Shown: in pieces, positions 21,503 through 35,791 of the stretch
Numbering within the stretch: position 1 is the stretch's first letter
Layout of the letters: each line of letters starts with the position of its first letter
Sequence record: PP384396.1
From: Teseptimavirus T7
Reading direction: 5' to 3' (one strand)
Length of the DNA stretch: 36,598 bases
Notes under the pieces: generated by a model
Told to the model about the DNA's origin: nothing
What the model saw: only the letters and a program-made list of their open reading frames with translations
Databases searched by the model: none
Program-made: the position numbers and the translations under genes

Positions 21503-23887
21503 ATGGCACTCATTAGCCAATCAATCAAGAACTTGAAGGGTGGTATCAGCCAACAGCCTGACATCCTTCGTTATCCAGACCAAGGGTCACGCCAAGTTAA
21601 CGGTTGGTCTTCGGAGACCGAGGGCCTCCAAAAGCGTCCACCTCTTGTTTTCTTAAATACACTTGGAGACAACGGTGCGTTAGGTCAAGCTCCGTACATC
21701 CACCTGATTAACCGAGATGAGCACGAACAGTATTACGCTGTGTTCACTGGTAGCGGAATCCGAGTGTTCGACCTTTCTGGTAACGAGAAGCAAGTTAGGT
21801 ATCCTAACGGTTCCAACTACATCAAGACCGCTAATCCACGTAACGACCTGCGAATGGTTACTGTAGCAGACTATACGTTCATCGTTAACCGTAACGTTGT
21901 TGCACAGAAGAACACAAAGTCTGTCAACTTACCGAATTACAACCCTAATCAAGACGGATTGATTAACGTTCGTGGTGGTCAGTATGGTAGGGAACTAATT
22001 GTACACATTAACGGTAAAGACGTTGCGAAGTATAAGATACCAGATGGTAGTCAACCTGAACACGTAAACAATACGGATGCCCAATGGTTAGCTGAAGAGT
22101 TAGCCAAGCAGATGCGCACTAACTTGTCTGATTGGACTGTAAATGTAGGGCAAGGGTTCATCCATGTGACCGCACCTAGTGGTCAACAGATTGACTCCTT
22201 CACGACTAAAGATGGCTACGCAGACCAGTTGATTAACCCTGTGACCCACTACGCTCAGTCGTTCTCTAAGCTGCCACCTAATGCTCCTAACGGCTACATG
22301 GTGAAAATCGTAGGGGACGCCTCTAAGTCTGCCGACCAGTATTACGTTCGGTATGACGCTGAGCGGAAAGTTTGGACTGAGACTTTAGGTTGGAACACTG
22401 AGGACCAAGTTCTATGGGAAACCATGCCACACGCTCTTGTGCGAGCCGCTGACGGTAATTTCGACTTCAAGTGGCTTGAGTGGTCTCCTAAGTCTTGTGG
22501 TGACGTTGACACCAACCCTTGGCCTTCTTTTGTTGGTTCAAGTATTAACGATGTGTTCTTCTTCCGTAACCGCTTAGGATTCCTTAGTGGGGAGAACATC
22601 ATATTGAGTCGTACAGCCAAATACTTCAACTTCTACCCTGCGTCCATTGCGAACCTTAGTGATGACGACCCTATAGACGTAGCTGTGAGTACCAACCGAA
22701 TAGCAATCCTTAAGTACGCCGTTCCGTTCTCAGAAGAGTTACTCATCTGGTCCGATGAAGCACAATTCGTCCTGACTGCCTCGGGTACTCTCACATCTAA
22801 GTCGGTTGAGTTGAACCTAACGACCCAGTTTGACGTACAGGACCGAGCGAGACCTTTTGGGATTGGGCGTAATGTCTACTTTGCTAGTCCGAGGTCCAGC
22901 TTCACGTCCATCCACAGGTACTACGCTGTGCAGGATGTCAGTTCCGTTAAGAATGCTGAGGACATTACATCACACGTTCCTAACTACATCCCTAATGGTG
23001 TGTTCAGTATTTGCGGAAGTGGTACGGAAAACTTCTGTTCGGTACTATCTCACGGGGACCCTAGTAAAATCTTCATGTACAAATTCCTGTACCTGAACGA
23101 AGAGTTAAGGCAACAGTCGTGGTCTCATTGGGACTTTGGGGAAAACGTACAGGTTCTAGCTTGTCAGAGTATCAGCTCAGATATGTATGTGATTCTTCGC
23201 AATGAGTTCAATACGTTCCTAGCTAGAATCTCTTTCACTAAGAACGCCATTGACTTACAGGGAGAACCCTATCGTGCCTTTATGGACATGAAGATTCGAT
23301 ACACGATTCCTAGTGGAACATACAACGATGACACATTCACTACCTCTATTCATATTCCAACAATTTATGGTGCAAACTTCGGGAGGGGCAAAATCACTGT
23401 ATTGGAGCCTGATGGTAAGATAACCGTGTTTGAGCAACCTACGGCTGGGTGGAATAGCGACCCTTGGCTGAGACTCAGCGGTAACTTGGAGGGACGCATG
23501 GTGTACATTGGGTTCAACATTAACTTCGTATATGAGTTCTCTAAGTTCCTCATCAAGCAGACTGCCGACGACGGGTCTACCTCCACGGAAGACATTGGGC
23601 GCTTACAGTTACGCCGAGCGTGGGTTAACTACGAGAACTCTGGTACGTTTGACATTTATGTTGAGAACCAATCGTCTAACTGGAAGTACACAATGGCTGG
23701 TGCCCGATTAGGCTCTAACACTCTGAGGGCTGGGAGACTGAACTTAGGGACCGGACAATATCGATTCCCTGTGGTTGGTAACGCCAAGTTCAACACTGTA
23801 TACATCTTGTCAGATGAGACTACCCCTCTGAACATCATTAGGTGTGGCTGGGAAGGTAACTACTTACGGAGAAGTTCCGGTATTTAA
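21503..23887 (+). CDS. 12: Tail tubular protein B (gp12)
   Basis: 794-aa ORF MALISQSIKNLKGGISQQPDILRYPDQG. Confidence 0.95.
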   Translation: MALISQSIKNLKGGISQQPDILRYPDQGSRQVNGWSSETEGLQKRPPLVFLNTLGDNGALGQAPYIHLINRDEHEQYYAVFTGSGIRVFDLSGNEKQVRYPNGSNYIKTANPRNDLRMVTVADYTFIVNRNVVAQKNTKSVNLPNYNPNQDGLINVRGGQYGRELIVHINGKDVAKYKIPDGSQPEHVNNTDAQWLAEELAKQMRTNLSDWTVNVGQGFIHVTAPSGQQIDSFTTKDGYADQLINPVTHYAQSFSKLPPNAPNGYMVKIVGDASKSADQYYVRYDAERKVWTETLGWNTEDQVLWETMPHALVRAADGNFDFKWLEWSPKSCGDVDTNPWPSFVGSSINDVFFFRNRLGFLSGENIILSRTAKYFNFYPASIANLSDDDPIDVAVSTNRIAILKYAVPFSEELLIWSDEAQFVLTASGTLTSKSVELNLTTQFDVQDRARPFGIGRNVYFASPRSSFTSIHRYYAVQDVSSVKNAEDITSHVPNYIPNGVFSICGSGTENFCSVLSHGDPSKIFMYKFLYLNEELRQQSWSHWDFGENVQVLACQSISSDMYVILRNEFNTFLARISFTKNAIDLQGEPYRAFMDMKIRYTIPSGTYNDDTFTTSIHIPTIYGANFGRGKITVLEPDGKITVFEQPTAGWNSDPWLRLSGNLEGRMVYIGFNINFVYEFSKFLIKQTADDGSTSTEDIGRLQLRRAWVNYENSGTFDIYVENQSSNWKYTMAGARLGSNTLRAGRLNLGTGQYRFPVVGNAKFNTVYILSDETTPLNIIRCGWEGNYLRRSSGI

Positions 23888-31284: not shown

Positions 31285-32946
31285 ATGGCTAACGTAATTA
31301 AAACCGTTTTGACTTACCAGTTAGATGGCTCCAATCGTGATTTTAATATCCCGTTTGAGTATCTAGCCCGTAAGTTCGTAGTGGTAACTCTTATTGGTGT
31401 AGACCGAAAGGTCCTTACGATTAATACAGACTATCGCTTTGCTACACGTACTACTATCTCTCTGACAAAGGCTTGGGGTCCAGCCGATGGCTACACGACC
31501 ATCGAGTTACGTCGAGTAACCTCCACTACCGACCGATTGGTTGACTTTACGGATGGTTCAATCCTCCGCGCGTATGACCTTAACGTCGCTCAGATTCAAA
31601 CGATGCACGTAGCGGAAGAGGCCCGTGACCTCACTACGGATACTATCGGTGTCAATAACGATGGTCACTTGGATGCTCGTGGTCGTCGAATTGTGAACCT
31701 AGCGAACGCCGTGGATGACCGCGATGCTGTTCCGTTTGGTCAACTAAAGACCATGAACCAGAACTCATGGCAAGCACGTAATGAAGCCTTACAGTTCCGT
31801 AATGAGGCTGAGACTTTCAGAAACCAAGCGGAGGGCTTTAAGAACGAGTCCAGTACCAACGCTACGAACACAAAGCAGTGGCGCGATGAGACCAAGGGTT
31901 TCCGAGACGAAGCCAAGCGGTTCAAGAATACGGCTGGTCAATACGCTACATCTGCTGGGAACTCTGCTTCCGCTGCGCATCAATCTGAGGTAAACGCTGA
32001 GAACTCTGCCACAGCATCCGCTAACTCTGCTCATTTGGCAGAACAGCAAGCAGACCGTGCGGAACGTGAGGCAGACAAGCTGGAAAATTACAATGGATTG
32101 GCTGGTGCAATTGATAAGGTAGATGGAACCAATGTGTACTGGAAAGGAAATATTCACGCTAACGGGCGCCTTTACATGACCACAAACGGTTTTGACTGTG
32201 GCCAGTATCAACAGTTCTTTGGTGGTGTCACTAATCGTTACTCTGTCATGGAGTGGGGAGATGAGAACGGATGGCTGATGTATGTTCAACGTAGAGAGTG
32301 GACAACAGCGATAGGCGGTAACATCCAGTTAGTAGTAAACGGACAGATCATCACCCAAGGTGGAGCCATGACCGGTCAGCTAAAATTGCAGAATGGGCAT
32401 GTTCTTCAATTAGAGTCCGCATCCGACAAGGCGCACTATATTCTATCTAAAGATGGTAACAGGAATAACTGGTACATTGGTAGAGGGTCAGATAACAACA
32501 ATGACTGTACCTTCCACTCCTATGTACATGGTACGACCTTAACACTCAAGCAGGACTATGCAGTAGTTAACAAACACTTCCACGTAGGTCAGGCCGTTGT
32601 GGCCACTGATGGTAATATTCAAGGTACTAAGTGGGGAGGTAAATGGCTGGATGCTTACCTACGTGACAGCTTCGTTGCGAAGTCCAAGGCGTGGACTCAG
32701 GTGTGGTCTGGTAGTGCTGGCGGTGGGGTAAGTGTGACTGTTTCACAGGATCTCCGCTTCCGCAATATCTGGATTAAGTGTGCCAACAACTCTTGGAACT
32801 TCTTCCGTACTGGCCCCGATGGAATCTACTTCATAGCCTCTGATGGTGGATGGTTACGATTCCAAATACACTCCAACGGTCTCGGATTCAAGAATATTGC
32901 AGACAGACGTTCTGTACCTAATGCAATCATGGTGGAGAACGAGTAA
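31285..32946 (+). CDS. 17: Tail fiber protein gp17
   Basis: 553-aa ORF MANVIKTVLTYQLDGSNRDFNIPFEYLARKFVVVTLIGVDRKVL. Confidence 0.97.
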   Translation: MANVIKTVLTYQLDGSNRDFNIPFEYLARKFVVVTLIGVDRKVLTINTDYRFATRTTISLTKAWGPADGYTTIELRRVTSTTDRLVDFTDGSILRAYDLNVAQIQTMHVAEEARDLTTDTIGVNNDGHLDARGRRIVNLANAVDDRDAVPFGQLKTMNQNSWQARNEALQFRNEAETFRNQAEGFKNESSTNATNTKQWRDETKGFRDEAKRFKNTAGQYATSAGNSASAAHQSEVNAENSATASANSAHLAEQQADRAEREADKLENYNGLAGAIDKVDGTNVYWKGNIHANGRLYMTTNGFDCGQYQQFFGGVTNRYSVMEWGDENGWLMYVQRREWTTAIGGNIQLVVNGQIITQGGAMTGQLKLQNGHVLQLESASDKAHYILSKDGNRNNWYIGRGSDNNNDCTFHSYVHGTTLTLKQDYAVVNKHFHVGQAVVATDGNIQGTKWGGKWLDAYLRDSFVAKSKAWTQVWSGSAGGGVSVTVSQDLRFRNIWIKCANNSWNFFRTGPDGIYFIASDGGWLRFQIHSNGLGFKNIADRRSVPNAIMVENE

Positions 32947-33004
32947 TTGGTAAATCACAAGGAAAGACGTGTAGTCCACGGATGGACTCTCAAGGAGGTA
33001 CAAG

Positions 33005-33208
33005 GTGCTATCATTAGACTTTAACAACGAATTGATTAAGGCTGCTCCAATTGTTGGGACGGGTGTAGCAGATGTTAGTGCTCGACTGTTCTTTGGGTTA
33101 AGCCTTAACGAATGGTTCTACGTTGCTGCTATCGCCTACACAGTGGTTCAGATTGGTGCCAAGGTAGTCGATAAGATGATTGACTGGAAGAAAGCCAATA
33201 AGGAGTGA
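33005..33208 (+). CDS. 17.5: Holin gp17.5
   Basis: 67-aa product with one hydrophobic segment (LNEWFYVAAIAYTVVQIGAKVV); GTG start after SD AAGGAGG. Confidence 0.85.
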   Translation: MLSLDFNNELIKAAPIVGTGVADVSARLFFGLSLNEWFYVAAIAYTVVQIGAKVVDKMIDWKKANKE

Positions 33209-33213
33209 TATGT

Positions 33214-33483
33214 ATGGAAAAGGATAAGAGCCTTATTACATTCTTAGAGATGTTGGACACTGCGATGGCTCAGCGTATGCTTGCGGACCTTTCGGACCAT
33301 GAGCGTCGCTCTCCGCAACTCTATAATGCTATTAACAAACTGTTAGACCGCCACAAGTTCCAGATTGGTAAGTTGCAGCCGGATGTTCACATCTTAGGTG
33401 GCCTTGCTGGTGCTCTTGAAGAGTACAAAGAGAAAGTCGGTGATAACGGTCTTACGGATGATGATATTTACACATTACAGTGA
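33214..33483 (+). CDS. 18: Terminase small subunit (DNA maturation protein A) gp18
   Basis: 89-aa product MEKDKSLITFLEMLDTAMAQRMLADLSDHERR; ATG 33214. Confidence 0.9.
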   Translation: MEKDKSLITFLEMLDTAMAQRMLADLSDHERRSPQLYNAINKLLDRHKFQIGKLQPDVHILGGLAGALEEYKEKVGDNGLTDDDIYTLQ

Positions 33484-33486
33484 TAT

Positions 33487-33520
33487 ACTCAAGGCCACTA
33501 CAGATAGTGGTCTTTATGGA
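33487..33520 (+). promoter_or_regulatory. RNase III processing hairpin R18.5
   Basis: actcaaggccactacagatagtggtctttatgga: conserved motif plus perfect inverted repeat ccactacagatagtgg. Confidence 0.6.
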
Positions 33521-33577
33521 TGTCATTGTCTATACGAGATGCTCCTACGTGAAATCTGAAAGTTAACGGGAGGCATT

Positions 33578-34009
33578 ATGCTAGAATTTTTACGTAAGCT
33601 AATCCCTTGGGTTCTCGCTGGGATGCTATTCGGGTTAGGATGGCATCTAGGGTCAGACTCAATGGACGCTAAATGGAAACAGGAGGTACACAATGAGTAC
33701 GTTAAGAGAGTTGAGGCTGCGAAGAGCACTCAAAGAGCAATCGATGCGGTATCTGCTAAGTATCAAGAAGACCTTGCCGCGCTGGAAGGGAGCACTGATA
33801 GGATTATTTCTGATTTGCGTAGCGACAATAAGCGGTTGCGCGTCAGAGTCAAAACTACCGGAACCTCCGATGGTCAGTGTGGATTCGAGCCTGATGGTCG
33901 AGCCGAACTTGACGACCGAGATGCTAAACGTATTCTCGCAGTGACCCAGAAGGGTGACGCATGGATTCGTGCGTTACAGGATACTATTCGTGAACTGCAA
34001 CGTAAGTAG
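33578..34009 (+). CDS. 18.5: i-spanin (Rz-like inner membrane lysis protein) gp18.5
   Basis: 143-aa ORF with N-terminal transmembrane segment (LIPWVLAGMLFGLGWHLG) and charged coiled-coil-like remainder. Confidence 0.85.
   Translation: MLEFLRKLIPWVLAGMLFGLGWHLGSDSMDAKWKQEVHNEYVKRVEAAKSTQRAIDAVSAKYQEDLAALEGSTDRIISDLRSDNKRLRVRVKTTGTSDGQCGFEPDGRAELDDRDAKRILAVTQKGDAWIRALQDTIRELQRK
33693..33944 (+). CDS. 18.7: o-spanin (Rz1-like outer membrane lipoprotein) gp18.7, nested inside 18.5
   Basis: 83-aa ORF wholly inside 18.5 in another frame; lipoprotein-type signal ending LICVATISGCASES (lipobox-like ISGC). Confidence 0.8.
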   Translation: MSTLRELRLRRALKEQSMRYLLSIKKTLPRWKGALIGLFLICVATISGCASESKLPEPPMVSVDSSLMVEPNLTTEMLNVFSQ

Positions 34010-34030
34010 GAAATCAAGTAAGGAGGCAAT

Positions 34031-35791
34031 GTGTCTACTCAATCCAATCGTAATGCGCTCGTAGTGGCGCAACTGAAAGGAGACTTCGTGGCGTTCCTAT
34101 TCGTCTTATGGAAGGCGCTAAACCTACCGGTGCCCACTAAGTGTCAGATTGACATGGCTAAGGTGCTGGCGAATGGAGACAACAAGAAGTTCATCTTACA
34201 GGCTTTCCGTGGTATCGGTAAGTCGTTCATCACATGTGCGTTCGTTGTGTGGTCCTTATGGAGAGACCCTCAGTTGAAGATACTTATCGTATCAGCCTCT
34301 AAGGAGCGTGCAGACGCTAACTCCATCTTTATTAAGAACATCATTGACCTGCTGCCATTCCTATCTGAGTTAAAGCCAAGACCCGGACAGCGTGACTCGG
34401 TAATCAGCTTTGATGTAGGCCCAGCCAATCCTGACCACTCTCCTAGTGTGAAATCAGTAGGTATCACTGGTCAGTTAACTGGTAGCCGTGCTGACATTAT
34501 CATTGCGGATGACGTTGAGATTCCGTCTAACAGCGCAACTATGGGTGCCCGTGAGAAGCTATGGACTCTGGTTCAGGAGTTCGCTGCGTTACTTAAACCG
34601 CTGCCTTCCTCTCGCGTTATCTACCTTGGTACACCTCAGACAGAGATGACTCTCTATAAGGAACTTGAGGATAACCGTGGGTACACAACCATTATCTGGC
34701 CTGCTCTGTACCCAAGGACACGTGAAGAGAACCTCTATTACTCACAGCGTCTTGCTCCTATGTTACGCGCTGAGTACGATGAGAACCCTGAGGCACTTGC
34801 TGGGACTCCAACAGACCCAGTGCGCTTTGACCGTGATGACCTGCGCGAGCGTGAGTTGGAATACGGTAAGGCTGGCTTTACGCTACAGTTCATGCTTAAC
34901 CCTAACCTTAGTGATGCCGAGAAGTACCCGCTGAGGCTTCGTGACGCTATCGTAGCGGCCTTAGACTTAGAGAAGGCCCCAATGCATTACCAGTGGCTTC
35001 CGAACCGTCAGAACATCATTGAGGACCTTCCTAACGTTGGCCTTAAGGGTGATGACCTGCATACGTACCACGATTGTTCCAACAACTCAGGTCAGTACCA
35101 ACAGAAGATTCTGGTCATTGACCCTAGTGGTCGCGGTAAGGACGAAACAGGTTACGCTGTGCTGTACACACTGAACGGTTACATCTACCTTATGGAAGCT
35201 GGAGGTTTCCGTGATGGCTACTCCGATAAGACCCTTGAGTTACTCGCTAAGAAGGCAAAGCAATGGGGAGTCCAGACGGTTGTCTACGAGAGTAACTTCG
35301 GTGACGGTATGTTCGGTAAGGTATTCAGTCCTATCCTTCTTAAACACCACAACTGTGCGATGGAAGAGATTCGTGCCCGTGGTATGAAAGAGATGCGTAT
35401 TTGCGATACCCTTGAGCCAGTCATGCAGACTCACCGCCTTGTAATTCGTGATGAGGTCATTAGGGCCGACTACCAGTCCGCTCGTGACGTAGACGGTAAG
35501 CATGACGTTAAGTACTCGTTGTTCTACCAGATGACCCGTATCACTCGTGAGAAAGGCGCTCTGGCTCATGATGACCGATTGGATGCCCTTGCGTTAGGCA
35601 TTGAGTATCTCCGTGAGTCCATGCAGTTGGATTCCGTTAAGGTCGAGGGTGAAGTACTTGCTGACTTCCTTGAGGAACACATGATGCGTCCTACGGTTGC
35701 TGCTACGCATATCATTGAGATGTCTGTGGGAGGAGTTGATGTGTACTCTGAGGACGATGAGGGTTACGGTACGTCTTTCATTGAGTGGTGA
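34031..35791 (+). CDS. 19: Terminase large subunit (DNA maturation protein B) gp19
   Basis: 586-aa ORF; GTG start after SD AAGGAGG; Walker A-like AFRGIGKSF; nuclease-type C-terminal half. Confidence 0.95.

Follow-up and report, generated by a model that had tools for sequence, protein, structure and literature searches.

Whether a single stretch of T7 DNA encodes both subunits of a spanin, and whether this pair has remained unchanged in an engineered phage, is the question raised by the locus spanning positions 33578 to 34009 of the window, i.e. the whole stretch of 36,598 nucleotides (Teseptimavirus T7, sequence record PP384396.1) that was analysed here. A preliminary description of this DNA had placed an Rz1-like lipoprotein gene (18.7) in another frame, entirely inside an Rz-like gene (18.5), and had regarded this as the classic embedded two-component spanin architecture. 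The list of open reading frames reproduced this arrangement to the base, with the inner ORF (33693..33944, plus strand, 83 aa, starting with ATG) fully nested in the outer ORF (33578..34009, plus strand, 143 aa, likewise starting with ATG), and the offset between both, (33693-33578) mod 3 = 1, assigning the inner ORF to the +1 frame. As read from the sequence, a Shine-Dalgarno motif GGGAGG (33568..33573, plus strand) stands 4 nt 5′ of the outer ATG at 33578, while AGGAGGT (33681..33687, plus strand) is located within codons 35-37 of gene 18.5 and 5 nt 5′ of the inner ATG at 33693. Among relatives, a GGAGG-type motif and an in-frame start are kept at the beginning of 18.7.

Comparison with reference T7 revealed that the 701 bp from 33400 to 34100 of the window are 100% identical to positions 36739-37439 of V01146.1, as they are to over 100 further T7 records. 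Gene 18.5 corresponds to 36917..37348 of V01146.1, where it is annotated as 'homologous to lambda Rz lysis protein', and gene 18.7 to 37032..37283, with both its DNA and its protein being identical in the window; in another T7 record the products are named 'Rz-like lysis protein' and 'Rz1-like protein'. The DNA, the proteins and the flanking genes 17.5, 18 and 19 are the same as in V01146.1, without any difference across the 18.5/18.7 region, so that the pair, which the preliminary description had called known for T7, matches the reference genes base for base. The gene pair is in other words already known, intact and ordinary, with its DNA unchanged from reference T7.

Family models assigned the two products to the two sides of a spanin. 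The outer product, gp18.5, matched Pfam PF03245 Phage_lysis, the lambda Rz family, at 30.1 bits (gathering cut-off 25.4) and PHROG 1327 'Rz-like spanin' with an E-value of 5e-64, while no NCBIfam model was matched by it. The inner product, gp18.7, matched Pfam PF17531 O_Spanin_T7 ('Spanin, outer lipoprotein subunit T7-like virus') with an E-value of 8.8e-41 (138.1 bits, cut-off 25) and PHROG 4306 'Rz-like spanin' with an E-value of 1.9e-39, and its NCBIfam match to P2 LysC was sub-threshold only. A search of solved structures found no relative of gp18.5 and gave, for gp18.7, a single spurious weak match to a 5898-aa protein. On the basis of ORF structure, identity, Pfam and PHROG for both genes, with the +1 frame and conservation (see below) added for the inner one, the region is almost certainly the embedded two-component spanin pair of phage T7, in which gene 18.5 encodes the i-spanin (Rz-like, 143 aa, predicted type II inner-membrane protein) and gene 18.7 the o-spanin (Rz1-like lipoprotein precursor, 83 aa). 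The proposed embedded architecture was thereby borne out, with family models for an i-spanin and an o-spanin and with a nested +1 ORF throughout the 80 relatives.

The membrane segment of gp18.5 and the lipoprotein signal of gp18.7 were called by pattern and hydropathy rules. The N-terminus of gp18.5 reads MLEFLRKLIPWVLAGMLFGLGWHLG, and its Kyte-Doolittle maximum was found at residues 8-22 (LIPWVLAGMLFGLGW), just after R6 and K7. The mean hydropathy of this segment is moderate, at 1.35 over 19 residues and 1.72 over 15. An AF2 model, obtained from a single sequence and having low to moderate confidence (mean pLDDT 65), contained helices at residues 2-23, 31-93 and 113-142, and left residues 94-112 unstructured. 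The hydropathy and the first of these helices agree with the N-terminal transmembrane helix that the preliminary description had assigned to the outer gene, and place it at approximately residues 8-24 (33599..33649, plus strand). We predict gp18.5 to be a type II inner-membrane protein with this single N-terminal membrane helix, and the model gives moderate support for a periplasmic domain of two helical segments and a linker. This would be the same plan as that of lambda Rz, which consists of a membrane anchor, a coiled coil, a linker and a further coiled coil (PMC6139136). The sole cysteine of gp18.5, C101, falls in the predicted linker 94-112 and would supply the at least one periplasmic cysteine expected for an intermolecular disulfide. 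Among 78 unique i-spanin relatives, at least one cysteine was present in all, and exactly one in 72.

The same observations bear on whether gp18.5 could be a peptidoglycan endopeptidase, i.e. an enzyme working on the wall, and not a membrane-fusion subunit. Such a function is implied by the product names 'endopeptidase' and 'endopeptidase Rz' in several phage records, and the older idea is also repeated in PMC3276506. However, in Pfam and NCBIfam gp18.5 matched no peptidase or hydrolase family and only the Rz lysis family, and its predicted fold comprises an anchor and two long helices with a linker, leaving no globular catalytic domain. Moreover, Rz-type proteins have been assigned to complexes that span the periplasm and disrupt the outer membrane (PMC6139136). 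Given the lack of an enzyme family match, the lack of a catalytic domain in the model and this spanin literature, an endopeptidase function for gp18.5 was rejected as highly improbable.

Turning to the inner product, read here as the o-spanin, gp18.7 contains GALIGLFLICVATISGC, with a lipobox ISGC at residues 46-49 and hence a candidate lipidation site at Cys49 (codon 33837..33839). Residues 39-49 fit a PROSITE-like lipoprotein core pattern and are followed by an alanine at +2, and the hydropathy maximum lies at residues 34-44. Hydropathy and pattern together delimit the signal hydrophobic region and lipobox to residues 33-49 (33789..33839, plus strand), and the signal peptide was indeed found to end in the lipobox-like ISGC that had been noticed beforehand. 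Across 67 unique o-spanins the lipobox can be written as I/T-S/A-G/A-C, being ISGC in 61 (60 recognised by regular expression, plus locus L021, for which the expression chose an earlier LLAC while the real lipobox is ISGC) and TSGC or TAAC in the remaining 6, and the +2 residue is never an aspartate. An alanine rather than an aspartate at +2 fits delivery to the outer membrane under the Lol sorting rule, and by these targeting signals (a lipobox, and no aspartate at +2) gp18.7 is predicted to be an outer-membrane lipoprotein. Its mature form, as predicted from the lipobox Cys49, would count 35 aa, i.e. the lipidated cysteine and a 34-residue periplasmic tail (33837..33941, plus strand). This sequence, CASESKLPEPPMVSVDSSLMVEPNLTTEMLNVFSQ, holds 4 prolines and the alanine at +2, and is without a second cysteine; such a mature protein would be short and proline-containing, as expected for an o-spanin. 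Among relatives, the motif VD.SLM..PN.T..L is conserved in the mature part.

Because an inner frame of this kind could in principle be a chance open frame within a real gene, from which no protein is made, its conservation was compared over 80 related loci from IMG/VR, in which the outer protein is 50-100% identical. The nested lipoprotein ORF in the +1 frame is kept in 80/80 of these loci, 79 of which have an ATG start, while in the 80th (L021) the lipoprotein ORF is likewise present but opens with GTG at that position. In the +2 frame, a lipoprotein ORF was present in 0/80 loci. A recoding null was also constructed from 20000 synonymous versions of gene 18.5, all of which encode unchanged gp18.5 and follow T7 codon usage. 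An ATG-initiated +1 ORF of at least 83 aa arose in 304 of the 20000 recodings (1.5%), so that length alone is not overwhelming, whereas an ORF with a lipobox signal (a hydrophobic stretch and a lipobox) arose in just 17 (0.085%), and these frequencies overestimate chance since the sequence of gp18.5 was itself shaped by co-evolution with the nested gene. Neither type of ORF ever occurred in the +2 frame among the 20000 recodings.

To examine the constraint on the outer gene, 78 unique outer genes were aligned codon by codon; third positions of 18.5 coincide here with second positions of 18.7. The entropy of the 18.5 third positions amounted to 1.01 bit before the overlap, 0.84 bit in the overlap with the 18.7 N-region, 0.27 bit in the overlap with the hydrophobic region and lipobox, 0.43 bit in the overlap with the mature o-spanin, and 1.11 bit after the overlap. 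The hydrophobic region and lipobox thus form the most conserved stretch of the 18.5/18.7 pair. The low wobble entropy of 18.5 inside the overlap is what selection for two proteins on one DNA would leave behind, and both frames are under selection. Besides the modest rarity of a long +1 ORF, a chance origin would be in keeping with the many GenBank records of T7-like phages that annotate the outer gene only. However, the scarcity of lipobox-signal ORFs among the recodings, the retention of ORF and lipobox in every locus, even at Rz identities as low as 50%, together with their absence from the +2 frame throughout, the wobble constraint exactly where 18.7 overlaps, and the strong match to a curated Pfam family all argue against it, as does the gp18.5-gp18.7 interaction reported in PMC3276506 (see below). 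The conservation data refute the reading of 18.7 as a chance ORF, leaving it a vanishingly small probability.

That 18.7 is a translated gene still leaves the matter of where its translation starts. From the annotated start, the signal peptide of gp18.7 counts 48 residues, of which the first 32 make up an N-region (33693..33788, plus strand) that stands out by its length, by its net charge of about +10 and by its open frame in relatives. The PROSITE lipoprotein rule expects the cysteine within the first 35 residues, and because of its 48-residue signal with a 32-residue basic N-region gp18.7 does not have a textbook lipoprotein signal. If 18.7 really started at the internal Met18 (33744), the upstream 17 codons would be excluded and the product would be a 66-aa precursor with an ordinary 31-residue signal. 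Such a start would account for the unusual distance of Cys49 from the annotated N-terminus, as this cysteine would be residue 32 counted from Met18; it would moreover sit well with the Pfam O_Spanin_T7 model, which begins only at gp18.7 residue 25, with the P2 LysC model, which aligns from residue 35, and with the lambda Rz1 signal of 19 residues.

Several features of the relatives nevertheless point to the annotated start. Residue 18 is a threonine in most Klebsiella-phage relatives and a valine in locus L011, and 33744 is preceded by a poor ribosome-binding site (aaagagcaatcgATG), as opposed to the AGGAGGT 5 nt before 33693, which together with its ATG is conserved in relatives. Although the sequence of the o-spanin N-region drifts across T7-like phages, its length and charge are conserved: in the 67 unique o-spanins it mostly counts 32 aa, being longer only where an upstream in-frame ATG is present, and its net charge of +7 to +12 shows that positive charge has been kept in all of them. 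Furthermore, the +1 frame of the N-region was open in 10/10 divergent representatives (less than 80% identical to each other), with a chance for each of 0.07-0.35 under synonymous recoding, probabilities that are not simply multipliable because the representatives share ancestry, while in an equally long control stretch just upstream of the N-region the +1 frame was closed in 8/10. We consequently rejected the internal Met18 start as unlikely, albeit less firmly than the readings of 18.7 as a chance ORF and of gp18.5 as an endopeptidase, and consider the long N-region to be probably translated.

Starting from this annotated N-terminus, one might speculate that the basic 32-residue N-extension of gp18.7 has a function of its own, either in delaying or gating Sec export and lipidation, letting spanin complexes mature at the right time, or in coupling 18.7 translation to that of 18.5. 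We give this proposal a low probability. The extension may also be read, under the null, as only a by-product of where a Shine-Dalgarno motif and ATG could fit in the 18.5 frame.

The pair was further compared with known spanin systems. As in T7, the lambda o-spanin gene (Rz1, 60 aa) is fully contained within the i-spanin gene (Rz, 153 aa) and read in its +1 frame, and the lipobox cysteine is located at comparable positions relative to the outer gene, at Rz codon ~87 in T7 and ~93 in lambda. Lambda Rz belongs to the same Pfam family as gp18.5, to which it is weakly homologous (22% identity over 90 aa, E 5e-5), and has an N-terminal membrane helix and two helical periplasmic segments with a linker, as gp18.5 would have according to its model. 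Lambda Rz1 is, like the predicted product of 18.7, a short outer-membrane lipoprotein. A direct BLASTP of gp18.7 against lambda Rz1 detected no similarity, so that the kinship of the T7 o-spanin to that of lambda rests on architecture and not on sequence. Differences between both systems concern the o-spanin signal (48 residues including the 32-residue basic N-region in T7, versus 19 in lambda Rz1), the prolines of the mature o-spanin (4 in 35 residues in gp18.7, versus 10 in 40 in lambda Rz1), and the periplasmic cysteines, as mature gp18.7 has none beyond the lipidated one where lambda Rz1 has Cys29, and gp18.5 has one where lambda Rz has two. Lastly, the lambda pair ends a contiguous S-R-Rz/Rz1 cassette, whereas in T7 the endolysin gene lies ~25 kb off and gene 18 stands between holin and spanins.

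PseT.3/PseT.2 of T4, a separated two-component spanin, and gp11 of T1, a unimolecular spanin, fulfil the same role in three-step lysis, linking and fusing the membranes, and the T4 spanin genes, like those of T7, are not located beside the holin and endolysin genes (PMC6139136). Neither system is nested, unlike that of T7: the T4 genes do not overlap, with the o-spanin having two essential cysteines, and in T1 one polypeptide, gp11, combines a lipobox with a membrane helix at its C-terminus (PMC6139136).

The preliminary description had also taken the pair as a check that the lysis cassette is intact. The holin of the first lysis step is encoded by gene 17.5 (33005..33208, plus strand), whose product matched PF10746 Phage_holin_2_2 (E 7.5e-38) and equals T7 gp17.5. 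The endolysin of the second step, T7 lysozyme/amidase, is encoded by gene 3.5 (7771..8226, plus strand; V01146.1 10706..11161), whose product equals T7 gp3.5 and gave a weak AmpD-amidase match in NCBIfam. All four lysis proteins (17.5, 3.5, 18.5 and 18.7) are identical to those of reference T7, and in this sense the lysis genes are intact. However, packaging gene 18 separates holin gene 17.5 from the spanin genes and endolysin gene 3.5 is located about 25 kb upstream, so that the T7 lysis genes are dispersed and the notion of one contiguous cassette did not hold.

Upstream of the pair, a 94-nt spacer (33484..33577) between genes 18 and 18.5 folds into consecutive hairpins with an energy of -25.3 kcal/mol (z = -2.1), and presumably holds the T7 RNase III processing site R18.5. 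It also contains the annotated minor 'E. coli promoter E[6]' (T7 36836, corresponding to 33497 in the window), which is adjoined by a sigma-70-like match at 33461..33489. An Rfam scan of 32900-34200, at E-values up to 1, returned no RNA family.

As for the genomic setting, the window is not wild type but an entire T7 genome that has been engineered, with a 160-bp terminal repeat at either end. It follows V01146.1 colinearly apart from three deletions, covering T7 5890-8845 (genes 1.1-1.8, including ligase), 11191-11471 (in gene 3.8) and 13305-14250 (genes 4.3-4.7), with junctions in the window near 5890-5911, 8255-8270 and 10101-10121, each bridged by a non-T7 linker of ~14-20 bp. After gene 10 a 790-bp insert is present (19992..20781), consisting of a second phi10 promoter with a strong RBS (19992..20069, copied from T7 22887..22964) and a GC-rich ORF of 236 codons (20071..20781) that corresponds to mCherry (PDB mCherry chains, E ~1e-161). 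The backbone matches 'recombinant T7_mini' PP384394.1 (35807 bp) and the PHEIGES paper (PMC10933291).

Smaller differences from V01146.1 were observed as well. Gene 17 (32907, 32913) carries gp17 S541R and, two codons further on, a silent change; gp12 G780R is found in gene 12 (23840), gp9 N227S in gene 9 (18499), and a silent change in gene 2 (5971). At window position 1896 there is one extra base compared with V01146.1 (39937 bp), which is consistent with the 39938-bp T7 records, e.g. AY264774.1, and a 1-base difference at the left edge of the block from 8270 is probably an effect of junction alignment. The S541R change in gp17 has been linked to infection of deep-rough (ReLPS) hosts in the PHEIGES paper, which gives the gene 12 change as G784E rather than G780R (PMC10933291). 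Given this discrepancy in gene 12, the correspondence of the window to the 'T7-compilation' phage of that paper (PMC10933291) is close but not proven exact. None of the engineered edits touches the lysis genes.

How the two proteins would act in lysis can be outlined by joining the present data, which cover gene anatomy, identity to T7, families, signals and selection, to the literature, from which the subunit interaction and the fusion model are taken. A single late (class III) T7 RNA polymerase transcript would carry both 18.5 and 18.7, and ribosomes would start independently at the two Shine-Dalgarno/ATG sites. The i-spanin gp18.5 would insert in the inner membrane via its N-terminal helix, in an N-in/C-out orientation, and project a mostly helical periplasmic domain composed of a long helix, a flexible linker with Cys101 and a second helix. 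The o-spanin gp18.7 would in turn be exported, receive its lipid on Cys49 of the ISGC lipobox and be cut by signal peptidase II. After holin gp17.5 has made the inner membrane permeable and amidase gp3.5 has broken down the wall, the spanin complexes, now free, would collapse and fuse the inner membrane with the outer one, which would take away the final obstacle to phage release.

The literature elements of this outline are the following. According to PMC3276506, which cites Bartel et al. 1996, gp18.7 binds through its 10 C-terminal residues to the 50 C-terminal residues of gp18.5. From the coordinates, the DNA for these two reported interacting C-terminal surfaces would partly overlap (33857..33941), which would tie the partners together physically at the level of the genome. 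In a model worked out mainly on lambda Rz/Rz1, spanin complexes reach across the periplasm through the meshwork of peptidoglycan and fuse the membranes after endolysin has removed the wall (PMC6139136). For T7 itself, 18.5 and 18.7 have been said to 'apparently' encode spanins, with reference to Summer et al. 2007 (PMC8365609), and gp18.5 and gp18.7 are named as the T7 spanins in bioRxiv 10.1101/2024.04.11.588870; T7 was absent, under the terms searched, from the body of Kongari et al. 2018. Laboratory cultures of T7 tolerate deletion or disruption of the two genes (PMC9825161), and since both are removable the spanin role is not inferable from essentiality. By analogy, this dispensability would fit the conditional phenotype of lambda spanin mutants.

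Taken as a quality-control point for an engineered phage, the locus indicates that the genes for the final lysis step are intact and unchanged, and brings no new biology. At the same time, 18.5/18.7 is a clean textbook case of two proteins encoded in overlapping frames, in which the comparative data show the expected dual-coding constraint very clearly.
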